From positions 1 to 50,152 of the forward strand of contig JANXYY010000070.1 in NCBI GenBank assembly GCA_025355805.1: a stretch of 50,152 nt of DNA, given 5' to 3'. The translations under genes were made by a program, and so were the position numbers. Source of the DNA: Actinomycetes bacterium (lineage in GTDB: Bacteria > Actinomycetota > Actinomycetes > Nanopelagicales > Nanopelagicaceae). Positions 3,417-50,152 of this stretch are shown here, one piece after another (position 1 is the first letter of the stretch; the number at the start of each line of letters is the position of its first letter). Below the pieces are notes generated by a model. That model was not told the origin of the DNA. It worked only from the letters and a program-made list of their open reading frames with translations, and searched no databases.

Positions 3417-3758
3417 ATGGCAAGTGGTAGCGCAATTCGTGGCAGTCGAGTGGGCGCAGGCCCAATGGGTGAAGCTGAAAGAGGTGAGGCAGCGCCCCGT
3501 TTCCGCGTGTCTTATTGGTGCTCTAACGGCCACGAAACCCGTCCTTCATTTGCCGACGATGGCGCCGTTGCCCTCCCGACTGAGTGGGATTGCCCGCGTT
3601 GTGGCTTACCAGCGGGTCGCGATCAGGCCAACCCGCCTGCACCGCCAAAGAATGAGCCATACAAGACTCACCTTGCCTACGTGAAGGAACGTCGATCTGA
3701 AGTCGACGGAACAGCGATTTTGGAAGAGGCGCTCAGGAAGTTACGCGGCGACGAGTAA
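3417..3758 (+). CDS. rbpA: RNA polymerase-binding protein RbpA
   Basis: A 113-aa ORF with the core YWCSNGHE...WDCPRCG, followed by a basic linker and the C-terminal sigma-interaction helix KTHLAYVKERR. This family is specific to Actinobacteria. Confidence 0.85.
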   Translation: MASGSAIRGSRVGAGPMGEAERGEAAPRFRVSYWCSNGHETRPSFADDGAVALPTEWDCPRCGLPAGRDQANPPAPPKNEPYKTHLAYVKERRSEVDGTAILEEALRKLRGDE

Positions 3759-5289
3759 CTTCGCTTACTGCCGCAGCGATTTCAATCAGACCCTGATACC
3801 GATCCGTAAGATGAAGGCGAATCAACGGCACGCCTCTGGCACTCAGGGCGAGCCCGTCACCGATCGCCTGAGCCATTTGCAGGGTATGGAAAGAGTAGGG
3901 CCGATCCGGAATTGGATAGTCGCTTTTTACATCGCCCGTTATCTGTAAGAAAGCACCAATTGTTGGGTGGCCCTTGTGAAATTGTCCTGTGCTGTGTAGA
4001 AAGCGTGGTCCCCAGCCAAAAGTGACTGGCTGGGAGATGATCTTGCCGATTTCATTTCGCAAATTACTGGCCTGAGCATCCACAAAGCGATCCAGAAAAA
4101 CCATTAGTGCCAGATACCCGTGTTCTGGAACCTGGTCAAAGAATTCGTTGAGGGTGTCAGCAAGTGTTACTCCATCAAAATCTCCAAAAACTTCTACTGA
4201 ACCAAATCGAGTGCTTGATTTCATTGCCAACTGATCGGTGTGCTCGAGCGTGATTGAAGTCTTTTCCTTTGACTCCGCGACATTTGGTTGATCAAAAGGA
4301 TTTATCCCGATACTGCGGCCGAGTAAAGCAGTGGCCCACTCCCACAAAACAAATTGAGCGCCGAGTGGGCCATCAATTTTGATTTCAGCATCCACTTTTT
4401 CATTAAGGGCAATCGAAAGAATTCCTTCGCCCTCGAAGCCAGCGCTCTCGCACGTCTCGACCACGATCGGTAGGAGGCCATGATTAGCTTTACCCGTAGA
4501 TTCAGCCACAAGTTGTTCGACCCAATTGCCGATACCATCTGGAGCGAGAACCGAAAAAAACGCTGAAGTTTTTTCGTGTTCGGCAAGTAATGCCGCCAGG
4601 GTCACGGCTGGTGATTCCGGCGAGGACATGACCTGGATGACCGAGTCCGCATCGTGAATCAGTTCCGCGATATTTACACCTGCAAGCGCGCTGGGCAAAA
4701 GTCCGAAAGTAGTGAGCGCGCTATAGCGACCGCCAACAGTTGGATCCGCGGTCAAGATCCGATATCCGCTCGCGCTAGCCGACTTCTCGAGCGGTGAATC
4801 TGGATCAGTCACGATCATCATGTGATCAAGGGGAGATAGTTCCGCAGCTTTGAAGGCGTATTCGAAGGCCGCCATCGCTGAGGCAGTTTCGATTGTTGAT
4901 CCAGATTTAGATGAGATTACGACGACGGTATTTGGTAGGCGGTTGAAAATGGCGGAATGAATCTGTCCGGGATCGGTGGAATCGACGATCGTGATCTCTT
5001 TGCCGTAAACCCTACAAATGACCTCGGGAGCGAGTGAAGATCCGCCCATGCCACAAAGGACGACGCGATCAAGATGGTGATCGCCTGCCCACTTTACGAA
5101 CTCGGCAATTTTTGGCAGCAAGTCCAGGGCCTGCTCGGGGGAAGTGATCCAACCCAGCCTGACCGCCGCATCGCCTTCTGCATCAACGCCCCACAGTGAA
5201 GAATCCTTGACGGCCAATCGTGGCAGAATCGATTGAAGATCGCCGACAATGTCTGCCGCTGGCCTTTTCTTGCTGCTTAGCTCGATCAA
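3733..5289 (-). CDS. pgi: Glucose-6-phosphate isomerase (SIS-domain PGI, actinobacterial tal-associated type)
   Basis: A 518-aa ORF with the SIS phosphosugar-binding motif CGMGGSSLAPEV and a second SIS half. It lies immediately downstream of tal in the same orientation. Its 3' end overlaps the rbpA 3' end by 26 nt. Confidence 0.75.
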   Translation of the reverse strand: MIELSSKKRPAADIVGDLQSILPRLAVKDSSLWGVDAEGDAAVRLGWITSPEQALDLLPKIAEFVKWAGDHHLDRVVLCGMGGSSLAPEVICRVYGKEITIVDSTDPGQIHSAIFNRLPNTVVVISSKSGSTIETASAMAAFEYAFKAAELSPLDHMMIVTDPDSPLEKSASASGYRILTADPTVGGRYSALTTFGLLPSALAGVNIAELIHDADSVIQVMSSPESPAVTLAALLAEHEKTSAFFSVLAPDGIGNWVEQLVAESTGKANHGLLPIVVETCESAGFEGEGILSIALNEKVDAEIKIDGPLGAQFVLWEWATALLGRSIGINPFDQPNVAESKEKTSITLEHTDQLAMKSSTRFGSVEVFGDFDGVTLADTLNEFFDQVPEHGYLALMVFLDRFVDAQASNLRNEIGKIISQPVTFGWGPRFLHSTGQFHKGHPTIGAFLQITGDVKSDYPIPDRPYSFHTLQMAQAIGDGLALSARGVPLIRLHLTDRYQGLIEIAAAVSEVTRRRVTS

Positions 5290-10422: not shown

Positions 10423-11127
10423 GTGAAAACCCAAGAGACGTCGACCCGTGATCGGGTGGCCCGGAGCATCTTGGAAAACGGGCCGTCGAGCGCGTATACG
10501 TTGGGTCAGCGATTAGGTCTCACTACTGCTGGAATCCGTCGCCACCTGGAAGCACTCCTCAGCGAGGGTCTCCTCTCGGCTCGCGAACCACGAATCAGCC
10601 TGCCTAGCCGTGGGCGCGGGAGACCGGCGAAGGTTTTTATCCTTACAGATCATGGCCGTGAACGGTTTGAGCACTCTTATGACGATTTGGCCGTCTCGGC
10701 GCTTCGCTACCTTGCCGCAACGGGTGGGGCTGGCGCCTTGATGGGATTTGCCCAATCGCGAGCAGTCGAAATTGAACGTCGGCACGCGCCTGCACTGGCT
10801 CGAGTTGGGTCACACCGGCGTTTGGCAGCGCTCGCAGATGGGTTGAACGAAGATGGGTTTGCCGCATCCATCCAATTGACTCCGATCGCCTCGGGGCTCG
10901 AACTTTGCCAACATCACTGCCCGATAGCTCACGTTGCCGCGGAGTTCCCGGAAATTTGTGAAGCCGAAACCGAAGCTTTTGGGCGGCTTCTGGGCACGCA
11001 CGTTCAACGTCTTGCCACCATCGCGCACGGCGACGGGGTATGCACGACATTTGTTCCGGCGGTTCGCACGACTCGGATCGTGAGTGCGAATCGAAAAATC
11101 TCAGGTAATCGAAAGGTGAGTACATGA
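10423..11127 (+). CDS. sufR: SufR-type winged-helix (ArsR/DeoR-like) Fe-S-sensing transcriptional regulator
   Basis: The N-terminal wHTH is [30 protein letters not shown]. The C-terminal Cys cluster is [10 protein letters not shown]...ICE...C. It lies directly upstream of sufB with an ATGA overlap. Confidence 0.8.
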
Positions 11128-27328: not shown

Positions 27329-29166
27329 TGTCAATCGATGCCATTCTGGTTGAAATTGTTGAAGGGACGCTCGCTTCAGTTGAGATGGAAGTGGAAACGG
27401 CAATCGCTAGGACCTCCCGATCGCCAATGATTCGCGATGCGCACGATTTTCGCGCCGGTATCCATGATCGAAAATTGCGAAAACTGACGGGACGCTCTTA
27501 TTCGGCTCTAGTCCACCCAATCGTGAGGGATTACCCGCTTGAATCGATGCGTCAGGGAGATGTCTTTTTTCACAACGACGTCTACCAGTCTGAAGGCGGA
27601 ATAGGCCACTTGCCCGATCTTTGCGTGACGGTCCCCGTCTTTCACCTTGGCGAAGTCGTCGCATTCGTTCAGGCATTCGGCCACCACGACGATATCGGGG
27701 GCGCATGCCCTGGCTCGATGCCGTCCGGCGCCACGAGCGTCTTCGAAGAGGGTCTGATGGTGCCTCCGATTCGTCTTTGGGACCAAGGGATTCCAAACGA
27801 ATCGGCGCTTAAAATCATGACCAGAAATTCCCGGATGCCAGATTCGTTGGCAGCCGATCTTGATGCCGAATGTTCGGCTTGTTTGATGGGTGCGCAACGG
27901 TTGTCTGAATTATTTGACCGTTATGGTCGGGAAACAATTGAGAGTTGCTTTGATGCGATTCTGGATAAGACGACTGAAACTTATAAGCGAGAGATCCTAT
28001 CCAAGATCCCGGATGGCACTTTTGTTTGGGAAGATTACGCTGAACATGATGGCGTTGACGCACCGCGGTTGCACACCCAGCGCATTACTTTGACGAAGAC
28101 TCCGGAGAAAATCATTATCGACTTCACTGGAACCTCTCCTCAAGCGAAGGGCCCAATCAATCACTGTGGCGATTATGCCGATGGAAACTTTCTCAAAAAA
28201 TGGCTTGCACCGATTCTTCGTAATCTTGCTGACACTCCCGAACGAATGGCTGAGTTGGATGTAAATGAAGGCGTTGTTCCGCTCATCGAAATGATCTTTC
28301 CACCGAAAGGGACCTTACTTACCCCCATCTTCCCAGCTCCAACCAATGCCAGAACCTTCGTAATCTTGCGACTTCTCGGGGTTCTCGCGGGAGTCTTGGC
28401 AAAAGCCGTTGATGGCAAGATGCCGGCGGATCAAGAGACCATCCGTTACACGGGTGTTTATGGCGACGATTTAGCTGGTGACTCGTATCTGATGCGTGAA
28501 GTTTTGGGTGGTGGTTCTGGTGGACGCTATTACGCCGATGGCGAGGACACGATCCATGTGGTCCCGGATTCGCGAAACCTACCCACCGAATTTACTGAAT
28601 CGCGATTCCCATTCATTGTCGAGCGACTTGGACTTGCAATTGATTCGGGGGGTGCTGGACGTTACCGAGGTGGCCTTGGCTACGAAAAGCACATCCGAAT
28701 GCTGAAGGATGCAAATTTTATGAGTATCGCTGATCGTTCGATTCTCGCTTGTTGGGGATTGAAGGGTGGTAAAGCAGGAGCCTCTTTCTCGGTGACCATT
28801 GATGTCGGGGGCGCTAACGAACGCAACATCGATGCCCTAGCCGACGCTGCACCAGTGAAACAAGGGGAGATCATCCGAATCCGAACCACCGGTGGCGGAG
28901 GATGGGGAGACCCGCTGCTGCGGCCCTTTGCCGATGTCGAACGGGATCTTAGGTGGGGCAAAGTGTCTTTCGCCGGCGCCCAAACCGATTATGGGGTGAT
29001 CGCATCAGGAACCAAAGACGATCCACTGATCGACGTTACCGCCTCAATCGAACTGCGCAAGGAGTTATCTGCGCTCAGAACAGGGCTAGAACCATTTTTC
29101 GACCGCGGACCTGGTTACGCTCAACTTTCGGGCGGAAAACTATTTGCGGAGGTTGATTTCGTGTGA
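27325..29166 (+). CDS. Hydantoinase/oxoprolinase family, B subunit
   Basis: A 613-aa ORF with a typical HyuB N-terminus (DAILVEIVEGTLASVEMEVETAIARTSRSPMIRDAHDF), ...FHNDVY...GHLPD... and the C-terminal GGGGWGDP. Confidence 0.85.
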   Translation: MMSIDAILVEIVEGTLASVEMEVETAIARTSRSPMIRDAHDFRAGIHDRKLRKLTGRSYSALVHPIVRDYPLESMRQGDVFFHNDVYQSEGGIGHLPDLCVTVPVFHLGEVVAFVQAFGHHDDIGGACPGSMPSGATSVFEEGLMVPPIRLWDQGIPNESALKIMTRNSRMPDSLAADLDAECSACLMGAQRLSELFDRYGRETIESCFDAILDKTTETYKREILSKIPDGTFVWEDYAEHDGVDAPRLHTQRITLTKTPEKIIIDFTGTSPQAKGPINHCGDYADGNFLKKWLAPILRNLADTPERMAELDVNEGVVPLIEMIFPPKGTLLTPIFPAPTNARTFVILRLLGVLAGVLAKAVDGKMPADQETIRYTGVYGDDLAGDSYLMREVLGGGSGGRYYADGEDTIHVVPDSRNLPTEFTESRFPFIVERLGLAIDSGGAGRYRGGLGYEKHIRMLKDANFMSIADRSILACWGLKGGKAGASFSVTIDVGGANERNIDALADAAPVKQGEIIRIRTTGGGGWGDPLLRPFADVERDLRWGKVSFAGAQTDYGVIASGTKDDPLIDVTASIELRKELSALRTGLEPFFDRGPGYAQLSGGKLFAEVDFV

Positions 29167-30332
29167 CTAGCGGTCCGCTAGCCGGTGTCGTCGTAATCGA
29201 TTTATCACGCGCACTAGCTGGTCCACATGCGGCGATGATGCTCGGAGATATGGGCGCTCGCGTAATTAAAGTTGAGAATCCAGATGGCGGTGATGACACC
29301 CGCGGCTGGGGCCCACCTTTCGTAGGCCAGGCTCAGGCAATTGAGTCAACATATTTTCTATCGTGCAATCGCAACAAGGAATCGATCACTCTTGACTTGA
29401 AAGCAGAGAACGGCAAGACGATTCTCGAACGGTTAATTAAACAGGCGGATGTTCTCGTCGAAAATTTTAGGCCAGGAGTCATGGATCGCCTGGGCTTCGA
29501 CAATGAACATTTACACGAACTGAATCCGAGGCTGGTAATACTTTCGATTTCGGGATTCGGTCATGATGGTCCTGAGGGTGGCCGTGCTGGTTACGACCAA
29601 ATAGCTCAGGGCGAAGCTGGCCTGATGTCTCTAACGGGTTCCTCGCCGGATGAACCAACTCGCGTAGGTGTTCCGATTGGCGATCTACTGGCCGGCATGT
29701 ACGGCGCGTATGGTGCGGTCGCGGCACTCCACGAACGAAATAGCACTGGTATTGGCCGAGTCGTGCGAACTTCACTGCTTGCCTCGATCGTGGGCGTTCA
29801 CGCGTTTCAAGGAACTCGCTACACGGTTGCTGGAGAGATTCCCAAAGCCAGCGGCAACCACCATCCATCTATCGTTCCTTATGGACTTTTTCATTGCAGT
29901 GATGGATTTTTGCAAATCGCGATCGGCTCAGAAAATTTGTGGCGTTTATTTGCACCCGCCTTTGGAGTTGACAAACCTGTCTACGCAACGAACGCGTTAC
30001 GCGTCGGCGCCCGCATTGAATTAGTTGGTGAAATCGAAGCGGCCTTCGCCACCTGGAGTGTCGTGAATCTACTCGAGAGGCTTACAAACTTAGGAATTCC
30101 ATCTGGTGAGGTCCGCTCGCTCGATCGAGTTTATGAATGGGATCAGACCAAATCGCAAGGGCTCTTAATGGATGTTGAGCATTCATCACTCGGCCTAATT
30201 ACGATTCCAGGACCGCCGCTTCGCATCGAAGGAGTTGGATCTATCGGTCATCGTCCAGACCCTCTAGCTCCACCTCGATTGGGCGAACATACGGATTCAA
30301 TTTTGTCGTGGCTTGATTCCCTTGACGCTTAA
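29163..30332 (+). CDS. Type III (CaiB/BaiF/Frc family) CoA-transferase
   Basis: A 389-aa ORF with N-terminal VVIDLSRALAGPHAAMMLGDMGARVIKVENP...GDDTRGWGPPF and the ENFRPG motif. The conserved Asp context is GVPIGDLLAGMYGA. Its GTG start overlaps the hyuB stop (GTGA). Confidence 0.85.
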   Translation: MTSGPLAGVVVIDLSRALAGPHAAMMLGDMGARVIKVENPDGGDDTRGWGPPFVGQAQAIESTYFLSCNRNKESITLDLKAENGKTILERLIKQADVLVENFRPGVMDRLGFDNEHLHELNPRLVILSISGFGHDGPEGGRAGYDQIAQGEAGLMSLTGSSPDEPTRVGVPIGDLLAGMYGAYGAVAALHERNSTGIGRVVRTSLLASIVGVHAFQGTRYTVAGEIPKASGNHHPSIVPYGLFHCSDGFLQIAIGSENLWRLFAPAFGVDKPVYATNALRVGARIELVGEIEAAFATWSVVNLLERLTNLGIPSGEVRSLDRVYEWDQTKSQGLLMDVEHSSLGLITIPGPPLRIEGVGSIGHRPDPLAPPRLGEHTDSILSWLDSLDA

Positions 30333-31838
30333 GTGAGCAGCGCTTCGATGACGAAACGATTGAGTGCCGAAGAGTTAATCATGATGGTGCTTGATCCAGG
30401 TTCATTTATTTCTTGGGATCACAATATTGATGATCCAGCCAACGCCTCCATGCAATACCTTGCAGAACTAAGCCAAGCACGTGCCAAATCTGGAACCACT
30501 GAAGCGATTCTCACTGGGGAGGGTTTCATCAAGGGTCGCAAGGTGGCAATCGTGATCGGCGAGTTCGCGTTTCTGGCTGGCTCAATTGGGGTGGGTGCAG
30601 CGACTCGCATAATCGAGGCATTCGAACGGGCTACTCGTGAACGCTTGCCGCTTCTAGCCGCACCGGTCTCTAGTGGTACGAGAATGCAAGAGGGAACGCT
30701 CGCTTTCATGCAGATGGTGGGAATCACTGGAGCTGTCGTGGCTCATAAGGCAGCAGGCTTGCCTTACTTGGTTTATTTACGGCATCCAACAACTGGTGGG
30801 GTCCTTGCCTCGTGGGGTTCGCTTGGGCATGTAACCGTCGCCGAACCTGGAGCACTAATTGGCTTCCTTGGCCCACGTGTTTACCAGGCGCTTCATGGTC
30901 AACCATTCCCCAAAAATGTACAGACCTCCGAAAATCTTTTCGCACACGGTCTTTTGGACGCCGTTCTTGCACCTGAACGTTTGGCTGAGATCACCTCAAG
31001 GGCTCTGACGGTTCTGGCTCCTGATCACAACACTTTTAGGACTGTGCCAACAATCGAAAAGGAACCACTTGCAGAGCACACCGCCTGGGAATCCATCACT
31101 CTCACTCGGGCGGCAAATCGGCCAGGAGTTCGTTCACTTCTGCGCTACGGCGCTAATAATGTTTTGCGACTACACGGAACCGGCGAAGGGGAGAGTCAAC
31201 CAACTTTGCTATTGGCTTTGGCACGCTTTGGCAACGCCCCATGCATCCTGCTTGCCCAAGATCGGGTTAACGGCGATAGACCTTTGGGACCGGCTGGTTT
31301 ACGTGAAGCTCGACGTGGGATGAAATTGGCATCCGAGTTAAAAATACCTTTGGTCACTGTGATTGACACTCCTGGCGCCTCGCTCTCTAAGGAGTCGGAG
31401 GAAGGCGGCTTAGCCGGCGAGATTGCGCGTTCGTTGGCTGACCAGATCGCCCTCGATGCACCCACACTGTGTGTCTTGTTGGGCCAAGGCGGCGGTGGCG
31501 GAGCCTTGGCCATTCTGCCGGCCGATCGGGTGATTGCAGCTGAACACGCATGGCTTTCACCGCTGCCTCCCGAAGGTGCCTCGATAATCGTTCATCGGAC
31601 CACCGATTTCGCGCCCCAAATGGCAGCTGAGCAGGGGGTGCGAGCGCGAGACCTCCTTGCAGCGGGAATCGTCGATCGCATTGTCGCCGAGCGACCAGAT
31701 TCCGCTCGGGAACCCGAGGAATTTGCTAAGCGTCTGTCGCAAATACTTGAGCATGAGTTGATCGCCCTAATCGAGGCTGATCCGATCCAGCGCCTGGCCA
31801 AACGTTTAGCCAGATATCGGAATCTAGGTCGGAATTAA
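30333..31838 (+). CDS. Fused carboxyltransferase (AccD-like beta half plus AccA-like alpha half)
   Basis: A 501-aa ORF. The N-terminal half aligns by eye to AccD (FAFLAGSIGVGAA..., SSGTRMQEG, PTTGGVLASW, AEPGALIGFLGPRV) but lacks the AccD Cys4 zinc ribbon. The C-terminal half aligns to AccA (RPLGPAGLREARRGMKLASELKIPLVTVIDTPGA..., GQGGGGGALA, LSPLPPEGASII). The start could instead be ATG 30348. Confidence 0.8.
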   Translation: MSSASMTKRLSAEELIMMVLDPGSFISWDHNIDDPANASMQYLAELSQARAKSGTTEAILTGEGFIKGRKVAIVIGEFAFLAGSIGVGAATRIIEAFERATRERLPLLAAPVSSGTRMQEGTLAFMQMVGITGAVVAHKAAGLPYLVYLRHPTTGGVLASWGSLGHVTVAEPGALIGFLGPRVYQALHGQPFPKNVQTSENLFAHGLLDAVLAPERLAEITSRALTVLAPDHNTFRTVPTIEKEPLAEHTAWESITLTRAANRPGVRSLLRYGANNVLRLHGTGEGESQPTLLLALARFGNAPCILLAQDRVNGDRPLGPAGLREARRGMKLASELKIPLVTVIDTPGASLSKESEEGGLAGEIARSLADQIALDAPTLCVLLGQGGGGGALAILPADRVIAAEHAWLSPLPPEGASIIVHRTTDFAPQMAAEQGVRARDLLAAGIVDRIVAERPDSAREPEEFAKRLSQILEHELIALIEADPIQRLAKRLARYRNLGRN

Positions 31839-31945
31839 GCGAGCGCTGGTTTTCGATTGCGGGTGGCATTTTGCGCCCGTGATTCCATTGACTCTGGGCA
31901 AACTCTGCCCGCTTGTTCACGGCACTGTTAGGGCAGGCTAGACAA

Positions 31946-32896
31946 GTGCGACTTCTAATTGCTCTAGGCGGGAACGCGATGACCGCACCCGACGGCGGCG
32001 CCAGACCGATTGATCAAGAGCGAGCGATAACCACTGCCATGGAACATGTGGCAGATTTGATCGCCGAGGGCTATCAAGTTCTCTTGACTCACGGTAATGG
32101 ACCTCAGGTCGGAAATCTGCTCGTTAAAAATGAAATTGCGGCGAGTGTGGTCCCGCCAGTACCCCTCGATTGGTGCGGGGCACAGACGCAAGGAACGATT
32201 GCCCTCTTGATAATGAATGCACTTGATGGTGCGCTCGCCGCTCGAGGACTCAAAGGTCGTTCTGCTGGTTTAGTTTCGCGCACACTGATCGATCCAGCTG
32301 ATCCTGGATTTGCAAACCCGAGCAAGCCAATTGGGCGCTATCTGCCAAAGTTGGAAGCCGAGAAGTTGGCGATCCATGGTCAGATTTGGGAAGACCGTGG
32401 TGAACGCGGTTGGCGCCGAGTTGTTGCCTCTCCTCAGCCTCTGGAAATTTTAGAAGTTGACGCGATCAAACAACTTATGGCCGGGGGATTTCTGGTCATC
32501 GCCGCCGGTGGCGGTGGAATCCCGGTGGTACGCGATGCGGCAGGCACCCTCAAAGGCGTCGAAGCGGTTCTCGATAAAGACCTAACGGCGGCGTTGCTGG
32601 CTCGCCAGGTTGAAGCGGACCTCTTGATTATTGCAACGGACGTACCAAACGCAGTTGTCGGTTGGGGTACGCCGCAGGCTCGCGCGATCGGTCGGATCTC
32701 GGTCGTCGAATTGCGAGCGCTAGCGGCAGAAGGGTATTTCGCAAGCGGGAGCATGGGTCCAAAGGTCGAGGCGGCTTGTCGGTTTGCCGAAGGCGGTGGC
32801 GTTAGTGTGGTGACCTCGCTAGATCAAATTCGAAACGCGGTTACGAGTGTCGAAATCGCTCGATTCGATGTTGGAACCATCGTTGTTGCTAGTTAG
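31946..32896 (+). CDS. arcC: Carbamate kinase
   Basis: Carbamate kinase motifs are present along the whole length: LIALGGNAM, THGNGPQVGN, KPIGRY, GERGWRRVVASPQP, GGGGIPVV, KGVEAVLDKD and FASGSMGPKVEAA. I prefer GTG 31946 over the track's TTG 31913 on N-terminal length. Confidence 0.88.
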   Translation: MRLLIALGGNAMTAPDGGARPIDQERAITTAMEHVADLIAEGYQVLLTHGNGPQVGNLLVKNEIAASVVPPVPLDWCGAQTQGTIALLIMNALDGALAARGLKGRSAGLVSRTLIDPADPGFANPSKPIGRYLPKLEAEKLAIHGQIWEDRGERGWRRVVASPQPLEILEVDAIKQLMAGGFLVIAAGGGGIPVVRDAAGTLKGVEAVLDKDLTAALLARQVEADLLIIATDVPNAVVGWGTPQARAIGRISVVELRALAAEGYFASGSMGPKVEAACRFAEGGGVSVVTSLDQIRNAVTSVEIARFDVGTIVVAS

Positions 32897-32941: not shown

Positions 32942-34060
32942 GTGTCAGAGAAGCCGCAGGCTATTGAAGTCCGCAAAGTCGCGATCAAGCATGTAAGCGA
33001 TGCAAGCGGATTAGAAGAGCTCATCGATTCCGGGGTCATCGAAGCAGATCGAGTCGTTGCGATTATCGGCAAAACGGAGGGCAATGGCGGCGTGAACGAT
33101 TACACGCGAATCATTGCTGATCGAGTGTTTCGCGAAGTATTGGTGACTAAAGGAAGCCGTTCAGTCGCGGATGTTAAGCAAATTCCGATTGTTTGGTCGG
33201 GCGGAACCGATGGGGTTATTAGTCCGCATGCAACGATCTTCGCGACGGTATCGCCAGAGAAAACTATTAAGACTGACGAGCCTCGCGTCTCGGTTGGATT
33301 CGCCATGAGTGAGGCAATCCTGCCCGAAGAAATTGGCTATATGGGCATGGTAAACAAGGTTGCCGCAGCCGTAACGATCGCCATGGCGCGCGCTGGAATT
33401 ACTGACCCTGCCGATGTGCACTATGTACAGACAAAGACACCGCTACTCACAATCCATACGATTCTTGACGCACATAGTCGAGGCATGAAGGTATGGACCG
33501 AGAACACCCACGAGTCCATGGACCTCTCGAATGGGACAACGGGTCTTGGGGTTGCGCTCGCACTTGGTGAAGTTAAGAGTGTTAGCGACAGCGACATCAT
33601 GCACAATCGAGGCATCTTCTCCGCGGTCGCATCTTGCTCTTCTGGAGTGGAATTAGACCAGGCGCAGGTTGTGGTAGTCGGAAACGTGCGAGGTATCGGT
33701 GGGCGTTATCGAATCGGACATTCGGTGATGAAAGATGCACTTGATCAAGACGGAATTTGGGCCGCGATCAGAAGTGCTGGATTGGAATTACCAGAGCGTC
33801 CGCATCACACTGACCTCAAAGGACGACTCGTCAACGTCTTTCTCAAATGTGAGGTATCACCAGATGGAATCGTAAGAGGGCGACGCAATGCGATGCTCGA
33901 TGATTCAGACGTGCACTGGCACCGTCAGATTAAGGCGGCGGTTGGCGGAGTTGCGGCGGCGGTAACCGGCGATCCTGCGGTATTCGTCTCGGTGTCAGCA
34001 GTTCACCAAGGCCCGGCCGGCGGTGGCCCAGTGGCAGCGATTGTTGATTTGGGAGAGTGA
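32942..34060 (+). CDS. Ring-opening (cyclic amide) amidohydrolase, cyanuric acid hydrolase/barbiturase (AtzD/TrzD) family
   Basis: A 372-aa ORF that is colinear by eye with AtzD. Matching blocks are [69 protein letters not shown] and [12 protein letters not shown]. The GTG start at 32942 is preceded by GAAGGAG. Confidence 0.85.
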
Positions 34061-34755
34061 GGATTGCCGAACCTCTTTTTCCAAATGACGACGGGTCAGC
34101 AAATCCGCAACTAATCGCCGCGATGAGCGGCGGAGATCGGTATGAAATTGTCCGTGCCCTCGCCAAGGCTCGGGTGTTCATCGCGCTCCTGGCCAAACTC
34201 GAAAGCCCAGCGATCGAGACGCCTGGGGCAAAGATTCGGAGCGCTGACGCAGGGATCGAGCAAGAGAGCGAAGTGTCCCTGGCCTGGCTCGTCGATGGAT
34301 CAGTCAAGGCATTGCCAATATTCACCAGCATTGCAGCACTCAACGCTTGGAATGTGGTCGCGCGACCGCTTGGAGTCGAGGCCCAACGCGCTGCCGTGGT
34401 GGCCCTGGCAGATGGCGAAATCGCAGTTATGGATCCAGGCGGCAAACACCCCATCGAGATCGGGCCAAGCGCGCTCCGCTCGCTCGCACTGGGCTACGAA
34501 TATGTGCCCATCTCTGTTGACCCCGAAGTAAGGCGAGCTATCGAAGAAGCGCTCGAGGGGAGCCTGGACGGTGGGCAAAAGATTGATTTCTCCGTCTTTG
34601 GCGATTTTCCAGATGACTTCGTAATTACCCTGGCTGGACCAATCCCAGCACCAGATCATGCTCAGCTGAGCGCATTGGCGCGCCATCTGGCCGAGGACGC
34701 CCGTATTCGCCTGCGACTGGAGGCTGGGTTGCAGGTCAAGATCGCTACGCGATAG
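34057..34755 (+). CDS. SseB-family protein (function unknown)
   Basis: A 232-aa acidic protein with an SseB-like core ([15 protein letters not shown]...). Its GTG start overlaps the amidohydrolase stop (GTGA). The family assignment is by recollection and is not verified. Confidence 0.55.
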
Positions 34756-34880: not shown

Positions 34881-34907
34881 CGGATCATAAAAAGATCCGT
34901 CGTTTTT
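34881..34907 (+). terminator. Terminator-like hairpin with U-run inside the infC leader (possible attenuator)
   Basis: The stem is CGGATC (34881-34886) paired with GATCCG (34894-34899), with loop ATAAAAA. It is followed by TCGTTTTTG. It sits about 75 nt upstream of the infC start. Confidence 0.3.
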
Positions 34908-34980
34908 GTGGGCTCCTCGCATGTGACGCGGGGAGTTTTCTTTTACCCCGGGGATGGCACCCGATGAAGAAGGAGCAAGC

Positions 34981-49582: not shown

Positions 49583-49785
49583 GGAATGTTGCCCCGAAGA
49601 CGGTCGGAAGACCTGAGATCGGTGCGCGTCCGTACCTTGAGAACTCAACAGCGTGCCACAAGTCAATGCCAATTAAACCTCGTCGTTGGGGTTGTTTGAT
49701 CTTTGGATCAAGCCACACCAATAACGAAATTCCTTTGGTGAATGACATAACTAAAGCTAGTTACGTCAAGCGCCAGATCAAGCCT

Positions 49786-50152
<367 letters not shown>

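Follow-up and report, generated by a model that had tools for sequence, protein, structure and literature searches.

A barbiturase gene of an Actinomycetes bacterium and its conserved neighbours: a candidate variant of the oxidative pyrimidine pathway

Introduction

Which ring is opened by an enzyme of the AtzD/barbiturase family in an Actinomycetes bacterium of the Nanopelagicaceae, and which chemistry do the genes beside it contribute? The enzyme in question is encoded by an open reading frame (ORF) of 372 amino acids (aa) with a GTG start, which spans exactly positions 32942..34060 of the + strand in a stretch of 50,152 nucleotides (nt) of contig JANXYY010000070.1 (hereafter the window). 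Judged from its sequence, the ORF encodes an ordinary barbiturase (EC 3.5.2.1, barbiturate amidohydrolase, group VI), the ring-opening enzyme of oxidative uracil breakdown. The enzyme itself is ordinary; the association of barbiturase, carbamate kinase, the HyuA/HyuB pair (HyuAB), a CoA-transferase and a carboxyltransferase, however, is a real lead to the missing genes of this pathway.

The biochemistry of the oxidative pyrimidine pathway has been known since the 1950s. Ureidomalonate is formed from barbiturate by barbiturase and is then cleaved by ureidomalonase to urea and malonate (Soong et al. 2001/2002, summarised in PMC3758960). This classical route does not require HyuAB or carbamate kinase. 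In the open-access papers and bioRxiv no description of the present gene cluster was found, and none of the genes of the pathway other than barbiturase (uracil/thymine dehydrogenase, ureidomalonase, those for the fate of urea and malonate) had been assigned there.

The ring-opening enzyme

The ORF is matched by the Pfam profile PF09663 (Amido_AtzD_TrzD) in its full length, residues 9-369 corresponding to profile positions 1-358 of 358 (472 bits, E 1.5e-141, cut-off 25), and by the NCBIfam model TIGR02714 with 556 bits (cut-off 153). In HMMER and pairwise alignments to PDB 4bvq the residues K44 (IIGKTEG) and S86 (IVWSGGT), K165 (VQTKTPL) and S233 (ASCSSGV) as well as K302 (VFLKCEV) and S350 (VFVSVSA) take the places of the AtzD pairs K42/S85, K162/S233 and K296/S344, and R56, which sits in the motif NDYTR, corresponds to R54 of AtzD. 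All of these AtzD residues are essential (Peat et al. 2013, PMC3758960). A full-length profile match, the three pseudo-symmetric Ser-Lys dyads and the arginine, which together mark a cyclic amide hydrolase of the AtzD/Bar family, are therefore all present, as an earlier note on the window had recognised for family and dyads, and the agreement is far beyond chance. The product is predicted to adopt the three-repeat Toblerone fold, as suggested by its gap-free end-to-end alignment with the solved structure 5hwe at 78% identity.

This structure, the Rhodococcus erythropolis barbiturase (Bar), is the top solved relative of the ORF (635 bits; 77.9% identity, 289/371 residues), whereas the best cyanuric acid hydrolase among the solved structures reaches 306 bits and the identities to cyanuric acid hydrolases are between 42 and 48% (47.5% to 5t13, 42.4% to AtzD). 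Five active-site positions split the barbiturases (N194, H324, K328, V348, S/A349) from the cyanuric acid hydrolases (R195, T321, R325, G345, G346) (Peat et al., PMC3758960). At five of five the ORF shows the Bar state, namely N197, H327, K331, V351 and S352 with a numbering offset of +3, and at five of five it differs from the cyanuric acid hydrolase signature. In a neighbour-joining (NJ) tree it forms a tight clade together with Bar and nine further homologues from actinobacteria, separated by a long branch from three cyanuric acid hydrolases, which places it in group VI of the family and not in groups IV or V. Its 120 best database matches are all 78-91% identical, and at least 577 species-representative genomes contain a relative. 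The position robustly inside the characterised barbiturase clade, the gap between 78% and 42-48% identity and the Bar-type residues speak against the suggestion of the earlier note that the substrate might be neither of the two known ones.

A different name would follow from the NCBIfam equivalog NF052395 'cyanuric acid amidohydrolase', which scores 458 bits against the ORF and thus exceeds the cut-off of 360; close homologues bear this name in several database sources. That the ORF is a cyanuric acid hydrolase can practically be discounted, as R195/T321/R325/G345/G346 are replaced by N/H/K/V/S, the known enzymes of this kind score less than half of Bar, and no biuret, carboxybiuret or allophanate hydrolase is encoded nearby. 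Moreover, Bar is inhibited by cyanuric acid (PMC3758960). We read NF052395 as a model which probably fails to separate the Bar clade, because the ORF clusters with Bar and carries the Bar signature without that of the cyanuric acid hydrolases. In public sources close homologues of the ORF are variously named barbiturase, cyanuric acid amidohydrolase or ring-opening amidohydrolase, likely a systematic mis-annotation.

Organization and conservation of the operon

The barbiturase gene is the last of a block of six genes on the + strand with the order hyuA-hyuB-CoA-transferase III-carboxyltransferase-carbamate kinase-barbiturase (Table 1), an arrangement that the earlier note does not mention. Within the block neighbouring genes either overlap by 4 nt or are separated by gaps of 0, 74 and 45 nt: the hyuA stop overlaps the hyuB start by 4 nt, hyuB and the CoA-transferase gene overlap to the same extent, and the carboxyltransferase gene begins at the base after the CoA-transferase stop. 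The GC content of the operon (0.53-0.55) equals that of its flanks and of the window, so that in this respect there is no sign of a recent horizontal transfer.

Table 1 Genes of the barbiturase operon and the ORF that follows it (window positions)
Feature	Position	Strand	Basis
hyuA-like, ATP-binding subunit of an ATP-dependent hydantoinase/oxoprolinase-family enzyme, 702 aa	25220..27328	+	Pfam Hydant_A_N, Hydantoinase_A, Hydant_A_C
hyuB-like, metal-containing hydrolytic subunit, 613 aa	27325..29166	+	Pfam Hydantoinase_B, 456 bits
Family III CoA-transferase, 389 aa; proposed malonate:acyl-CoA CoA-transferase	29163..30332	+	Pfam CoA_transf_3, 378 bits
Fused AccD/AccA-type carboxyltransferase, 501 aa; proposed malonyl-CoA decarboxylase	30333..31838	+	Pfam Carboxyl_trans + ACCA
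Predicted carbamate kinase, 327 aa from TTG	31913..32896	+	NCBIfam NF009007, solved carbamate kinases
Predicted barbiturase, 372 aa	32942..34060	+	PF09663, TIGR02714, 5hwe, specificity residues
SseB-like ORF	34057..34755	+	Pfam SseB N-terminal domain, 52 bits; 4-nt overlap with barbiturase stop

The surroundings of related genes were compared in 80 loci from species-representative genomes with 10-kb flanks and in several more obtained by exact-protein look-up. A barbiturase is present in 84 loci, 54 of which extend at least 9 kb on both sides of it (full-flank loci). Homologues of the window neighbours were located by tblastn, so the final counts (Table 2) are independent of ORF calls; ORFs in the high-GC loci were taken from a codon log-odds caller trained on conserved genes. 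Carbamate kinase stands directly upstream of barbiturase in 73 of the 84 loci; its median start lies 979 bp before that of the barbiturase gene, which makes it the adjacent gene. Amidase and CN-hydrolase taken together are found in 19 of the full-flank loci. The orthologues are 75-86% (HyuB), 64-76% (HyuA), 61-76% (CoA-transferase), 54-68% (carboxyltransferase) and 52-69% (carbamate kinase) identical to the proteins of the window.

Table 2 Occurrence of partner genes in the barbiturase loci
Gene	All loci (of 84)	Full-flank loci (of 54)
Carbamate kinase	73	51
HyuA or HyuB	49	41
CoA-transferase	46	31
Carboxyltransferase	32	24
Amidase	21	15
CN-hydrolase	5	4
Mo-hydroxylase large subunit	15	13

The loci stem from Nocardioidaceae, Micromonosporaceae, Streptosporangiaceae, Jiangellaceae, Geodermatophilaceae, Motilibacteraceae and Propionibacteriaceae, from Nakamurella, Cryptosporangium, Haloechinothrix, Streptomyces, Embleya and Yinghuangia, and from Terrabacter, Janibacter, Knoellia and Intrasporangium, the last four of which we take to be Intrasporangiaceae. 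The closest ones (85%) are metagenome-assembled genomes (MAGs) from freshwater lakes, and the commonest architecture is the gene order of the window. A 'non-canonical' gene context, as the earlier note had put it, is therefore not what the comparison reveals: the same neighbours stand beside barbiturase-clade genes in most of the 84 loci and in many actinobacterial families, and the context in the window is the usual one of this clade. Both the identity of the ORF as a barbiturase orthologue, as far as alignments allow it to be stated, and the conservation of its partner set are thus established.

Some loci also contain genes that were set aside. Those downstream of barbiturase in Terrabacter-type loci (L053) were rejected as cluster members, being purH, purN and sucCD.

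Pathway assignment

The pathway to which the operon belongs can be read from fuller clusters. In Yinghuangia seranimata (locus L091) one strand carries, in this order, PucR, an NCS2 permease, the FAD, 2Fe-2S and Mo subunits of a molybdenum hydroxylase (Mo-hydroxylase), CoxG and a CN-hydrolase, and continues with HyuA, HyuB, CoA-transferase, carboxyltransferase, carbamate kinase and barbiturase. Its NCS2 permease is matched by the RutG/uracil permease models with 378 and 284 bits vs 167 bits for the xanthine permease. In S. inhibens (L090) the lower block is the same, and hydroxylase, CoxG and CN-hydrolase are on the opposite strand; in Aeromicrobium (L088) the order is hydroxylase-CoxG-amidase-HyuA-HyuB-NmrA-carbamate kinase-barbiturase-CoA-transferase, followed by Mo-cofactor maturation genes. 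The Rhodococcus loci combine CoA-transferase, carboxyltransferase, barbiturase and amidase with a uracil/xanthine-type permease, PucR, UPRTase and XdhC; HyuAB and carbamate kinase were not found in them by tblastn.

Because PucR, a uracil-type permease, a Mo-hydroxylase and either an amidase or a CN-hydrolase join it in the fuller clusters, the operon is assigned to the oxidative pyrimidine pathway, and it is probably the conserved 'lower' block of this catabolism in Actinomycetota, ending in barbiturase. The 'upper' block, consisting of the uracil-type permease, the Mo-hydroxylase with CoxG and the amidase or CN-hydrolase, lies beside it in other genomes and is presumably located elsewhere in that of the window. 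Relative to the classical pathway, the operon is a variant that carries four additional conserved genes, for whose roles the open literature searched gives no description. What survives of the earlier note in this respect is its idea that the downstream chemistry may be new, which now rests on conserved partners beyond the classical pathway and no longer on the absence of partners.

As this note had also stated, neither a biuret or allophanate hydrolase nor a uracil dehydrogenase or ureidomalonase is found among the annotated ORFs of at least 150 aa over the 50 kb; a urease is likewise missing from the window. This lack of canonical partners is one of two points in favour of a further reading, in which the barbiturase-family ORF takes neither barbiturate nor cyanurate but some other substrate, the operon serving to degrade an unknown cyclic amide. 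The second point is that for groups IV and V of the family activity on both known substrates is either unknown or lacking (PMC3758960). With an ORF of group VI that is 78% identical to Bar and agrees with it at all specificity positions, and with orthologous clusters that carry a uracil-type permease, a Mo-hydroxylase and UPRTase, such a reading is very improbable.

For the hydrolysis of ureidomalonate two subtypes of amidase have to be considered, a Rhodococcus type downstream of barbiturase (L043:11230-12723) and a Nocardioides type upstream of hyuA (L088:2581-3999), which are about 39% identical. Different functions of the two were not deduced from this identity, since both fall in the NCBIfam subfamily PRK07486 (709 and 465 bits). 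Elsewhere a nitrilase-superfamily CN-hydrolase occupies the amidase slot (L041:4072-4974, L091:6734-7633), which looks like a non-orthologous replacement. The obvious candidate for the ureidomalonase is the amidase of the PRK07486 type or, where it is replaced, the CN-hydrolase.

The large subunit of the cluster-linked Mo-hydroxylase (L091:3607-6039; also L063:5490-8312 and L088:1-1912) is named by NCBIfam NF040766 as 'aerobic CO dehydrogenase large subunit, group 5' (1536 bits), and the protein of L063 has a form-II-type PYRGAGR motif. From the context of uracil-type permease and barbiturase this enzyme is more likely a uracil/thymine dehydrogenase than a CO dehydrogenase. Metagenome surveys of triazine degradation or CO oxidation can be led astray by the labels 'cyanuric acid hydrolase' for the barbiturase clade and 'CO dehydrogenase' for the Mo-hydroxylase.

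A cluster on plasmid pRZP2 of Rhodococcus sp. ZPP (L092, 503325-533187) contains amidase, CoA-transferase, XdhC, PucR, NCS2 permease, Mo-hydroxylase subunits, CoxG, HyuA/B and NmrA without barbiturase or carbamate kinase. It was rejected as a case of HyuAB without barbiturase: the Mo subunit and hyuA are partial and missing from the gene table, as in a decaying cluster. The window locus and its more than 80 relatives provide a concrete, testable gene set for the dehydrogenase, ureidomalonase, urea and malonate steps.

Proposed reactions of the partner proteins

In the scheme considered here the Ser-Lys dyad of barbiturase would hydrolyse one imide bond of barbituric acid (6-hydroxyuracil), and the resulting ureidomalonate would be cleaved by the amidase or CN-hydrolase to malonate and urea. 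From malonate the family III CoA-transferase would make malonyl-CoA, which the AccD/AccA fusion, working without a biotin carrier, would decarboxylate to acetyl-CoA and CO2. At the expense of ATP, HyuAB would phosphorylate urea, or the ureido group before its release, on the carbonyl oxygen, and hydrolysis would yield carbamoyl phosphate and NH3. Carbamate kinase would convert carbamoyl phosphate and ADP to ATP and carbamate, the latter decaying to NH3 and CO2, so that both ring nitrogens would be freed without urease, without nickel and without net ATP cost. If this is true, HyuAB/carbamate kinase and the malonate shunt complete the oxidative pyrimidine pathway to acetyl-CoA, CO2 and 2 NH3 and genes are gained for steps for which none is known to us, with the corollary that the 'form II / group 5 CO dehydrogenase' would be the missing uracil/thymine dehydrogenase.

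The malonate module of CoA-transferase and carboxyltransferase, which would parallel the logic of MatABC and MdcA/D/E, is by a small margin the favoured interpretation of these two genes. It is proposed because the nearest solved relatives of the CoA-transferase use dicarboxylates, a MatC-type malonate carrier gene abuts the CoA-transferase (65% identical orthologue) and carboxyltransferase genes in locus L089, and neither a biotin carboxylase nor a biotin carboxyl carrier protein is encoded in the cluster. The nearest solved relatives of the CoA-transferase are one enzyme deposited as formyl-CoA transferase, succinate-hydroxymethylglutarate CoA-transferase and YfdE, which we take to be acetyl-CoA:oxalate CoA-transferase. 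In the carboxyltransferase the NCBIfam model accD covers residues 9-219 and accA residues 242-500, and the PDB matches are the beta and alpha subunits of E. coli-type carboxyltransferase. Actinobacterial acyl-CoA carboxylases normally have PccB-type beta subunits, unlike this AccD + AccA fusion.

HyuA has its best solved relative in N-methylhydantoinase (7hk5, 471 bits), followed by the caprolactamase subunit CapA (6yra, 381 bits), the carboxylases scoring lower; HyuB reaches 210 bits with N-methylhydantoinase and 185 bits with caprolactamase. D41/H95/D98/H120 of HyuB align with the metal tetrad D41/H99/D102/H124 of CapB (CapB residues: PMC8453981). The pair thus shows the features of the ATP-dependent HyuA/HyuB lactam hydrolases: separate subunits with domains of the A and the B type and, in the B subunit, the Asp-His-Asp-His metal site. 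Both proteins score far under the NCBIfam equivalog cut-offs of CapA (517 vs 1000 bits) and CapB (188 vs 1000 bits). On sequence grounds HyuAB belongs to the ATP-dependent lactam/ureide hydrolase branch, as a distinct subfamily found only in barbiturase/Mo-hydroxylase clusters; the next relatives of HyuB in the plasmid collection do not exceed 42% identity. In the mechanism of the family, as described for caprolactamase, ATP phosphorylates the amide carbonyl oxygen, and metal-assisted hydrolysis follows (PMC8453981).

The carbamate kinase gene product is matched by the NCBIfam subfamily NF009007 with 300 bits (above the cut-off of 266), reaches 318 bits with the equivalog arcC TIGR00746 (below the cut-off of 358), and aligns in full length with the solved carbamate kinases of Pyrococcus, Giardia and Enterococcus at about 236 bits. 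Its true start is probably a few codons downstream of TTG 31913. The public gene call (305 aa, L001:117-1034, equal to a start at window position 31979) would delete the conserved N-terminal GGNAM motif, which a start at TTG 31913 or a few codons later keeps. Carbamate kinase apart from barbiturase remains together with HyuA-HyuB-NmrA in two loci (L087, L063).

That HyuAB and carbamate kinase carry out a hitherto undescribed nickel-independent, ATP-neutral hydrolysis of urea or a ureido acid via carbamoyl phosphate is a tentative proposal. Urea as the substrate of HyuAB is a possibility of about the same, limited weight; ureidomalonate appears somewhat more doubtful. Soong and co-workers are said to have reported in 2001 that urea accumulates as an end product in Rhodococcus. 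The ATP-recycling route would fit this observation, because HyuAB and carbamate kinase are lacking in the Rhodococcus loci. If true, the pair would free nitrogen from ureides by a new enzymatic route that dispenses with nickel urease, which would be of relevance for the streamlined actinobacteria of freshwater that keep the operon inside a housekeeping region.

A number of findings weigh against the scheme as a whole. We know of no HyuAB-family enzyme that acts on urea or a linear ureide, nor of one that releases an acyl or carbamoyl phosphate. About one fifth of the full-flank loci have carbamate kinase and barbiturase without HyuAB within 10 kb, though at least two of the loci scored in this way (L013, L019) show a Hyu fragment at their edge; between the genes of these loci lie parts of ATP-binding cassette (ABC) transporters, permeases, glycosyltransferases and regulators, and an alternative carbamoyl-phosphate-forming enzyme was not found there. 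An NmrA-like NAD(P)-binding gene, which is not matched by any NCBIfam model and is not present in the window, stands between hyuB and carbamate kinase in about one third of the loci (L088:8134-8937, L087:4626-5321, L020:8042-8863); it has no role in the scheme and no obvious one in a purely hydrolytic pathway. The carboxyltransferase resembles the biotin-dependent type (162 and 154 bits) far more than the biotin-independent MdcD/E (31 and 22 bits) and may need a biotin carrier encoded elsewhere. The window contains no Mo-hydroxylase (uracil/thymine dehydrogenase candidate), no amidase or CN-hydrolase (ureidomalonase) and no nucleobase permease; the pathway is thus locally incomplete, and the set of dehydrogenase and ureidomalonase encoded with barbiturase that characterises oxidative pyrimidine catabolism is not found within these 50 kb. 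In the mechanisms proposed for caprolactamase, finally, the phosphate departs as free inorganic phosphate (PMC8453981).

If ureidomalonate is the substrate, a variant without urea results: HyuAB would phosphorylate the ureido carbonyl of ureidomalonate to give carbamoyl phosphate and malonamate, carbamate kinase would recover the ATP, and the amidase or CN-hydrolase would be a malonamidase. This would be a one-carbon-longer analogue of the branch from oxalurate to oxamate and carbamoyl phosphate in allantoin fermentation. The restriction of the HyuAB subfamily to barbiturase/Mo-hydroxylase clusters, with next relatives at 42% or less, suggests a pathway-specific substrate rather than general urea. 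The low identity of the Nocardioides-type to the Rhodococcus-type amidase and the filling of its slot by the CN-hydrolase fit the variant, as do its solved relatives, which include malonamidase E2 and the 'biuret hydrolase' 6c62 (full length, 189 bits), presumably AtzE. On the other hand, both amidase types belong to PRK07486 and may be isofunctional ureidomalonases, the operon of the window lacks an amidase to finish malonamate, and there is no precedent of HyuAB on linear ureides. The variant is accordingly doubtful, as is the assignment of ureidomalonate to HyuAB.

Still less likely is that HyuAB opens a second ring beyond that of barbiturase, either 5-methylbarbiturate from thymine or another cyclic ureide, while carbamate kinase only salvages carbamate into carbamoyl phosphate for arginine and pyrimidine synthesis. 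The closest characterised relatives of HyuAB, N-methylhydantoinase and caprolactamase, do open rings of cyclic amides or ureides, and barbiturase was reportedly found by Soong and colleagues in 2002 to be specific for barbiturate. But why carbamate kinase and barbiturase are nearly always adjacent is left unexplained, carbamate kinases normally run toward ATP, and no carbamate-releasing step is evident. The scheme via carbamoyl phosphate is compared below with established routes.

Comparison with known systems

Bar of R. erythropolis JCM 3132 shares with the ORF the full-length identity of 77.9%, the three dyads and the five specificity residues, and the Rhodococcus loci and the window have the neighbouring CoA-transferase and carboxyltransferase genes in common. 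In Rhodococcus an amidase gene follows directly downstream and HyuAB/carbamate kinase are absent, whereas the window has HyuAB and carbamate kinase without an amidase, dehydrogenase or permease nearby. AtzD/TrzD, which are followed by AtzEGH/AtzF or BiuH, belong to the same Toblerone-fold family and have the dyads and an equivalent ring opening, but they are 42-48% identical to the ORF and carry R/T/R/G/G in place of N/H/K/V/S, and Atz-type downstream genes are missing in the window. Ureidomalonate is a stable product, whereas carboxybiuret, the product of cyanuric acid hydrolase, decarboxylates (PMC3758960).

The proposed malonate module resembles MatABC (Rhizobium) and MdcA/D/E in carrier, thioester activation of malonate and decarboxylation on a carboxyltransferase fold. 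It differs in that activation would be carried out by a family III CoA-transferase instead of the MatB ligase or MdcA, and in the weak similarity of the AccD/AccA fusion to MdcD/E. With N-methylhydantoinase (creatinine degradation), 5-oxoprolinase and caprolactamase the HyuAB of the window has the two subunits, the best PDB matches and the Asp-His-Asp-His site in B in common; it is unlike them as a distinct barbiturase-cluster subfamily, and its proposed substrate and the release of carbamoyl phosphate are without precedent.

For the nitrogen steps the nearest parallel is the oxalurate branch of anaerobic allantoin degradation (oxamate carbamoyltransferase + AllK). Oxalurate is N-carbamoyl-oxamate and ureidomalonate is N-carbamoyl-malonamate. 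In both cases a ureido acid would be paired with a dedicated carbamate kinase, and the ureido group would pass through carbamoyl phosphate to ATP. Other catabolic sources of carbamoyl phosphate known to us are citrulline and carbamoylputrescine. The oxalurate branch yields ATP, while the operon, with an ATP-consuming HyuAB in place of the carbamoyltransferase, would be ATP-neutral at best; a carbamoyltransferase of known type was not found in the loci inspected. Urea amidolyase (urea carboxylase + allophanate hydrolase) is similar in concept only, as an ATP-dependent and nickel-free disposal of urea. The operon has neither biotin carboxylase nor carboxyl carrier nor allophanate hydrolase, and it would instead use a carbamoyl phosphate intermediate with recovery of the ATP.

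Flanking genes and further features of the window

The SseB-like ORF is probably co-transcribed with barbiturase but lies outside the pathway. It occurs 3' of barbiturase only in the closest freshwater relatives, in L007-L009 by tblastn and in L004-L006 as an SseB-domain ORF among the called genes, and is followed by infC-rpmI-rplT, a housekeeping synteny. In the freshwater lineage the operon seems to sit as an insertion with a SixA-like gene on one side and the sseB-infC block on the other, with the same layout in L004, L008 and L009. Terminator-like hairpins lie at 34881-34938; promoter-like and terminator-like matches in the window are not above chance, and an Rfam scan of the window detected no regulatory RNA.

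The other annotated ORFs of at least 150 aa in the 50 kb are of the housekeeping kind (gap-pgk-tpi, tkt, tal, suf, moaA, fabG1/inhA-like, infC-rpmI-rplT, pheST, arg, tyrS). An ORF of 234 aa upstream of sufB (10423-11127, + strand) has no Pfam match at E 1e-5 or better, and one of 518 aa beside tal/tkt (3733-5289, - strand) has a weak PGI match only (29 bits). At its end (49785-50152, + strand) the window contains the first 372 positions of a 16S rRNA gene, ended by the window edge (Rfam RF00177, 358 bits).

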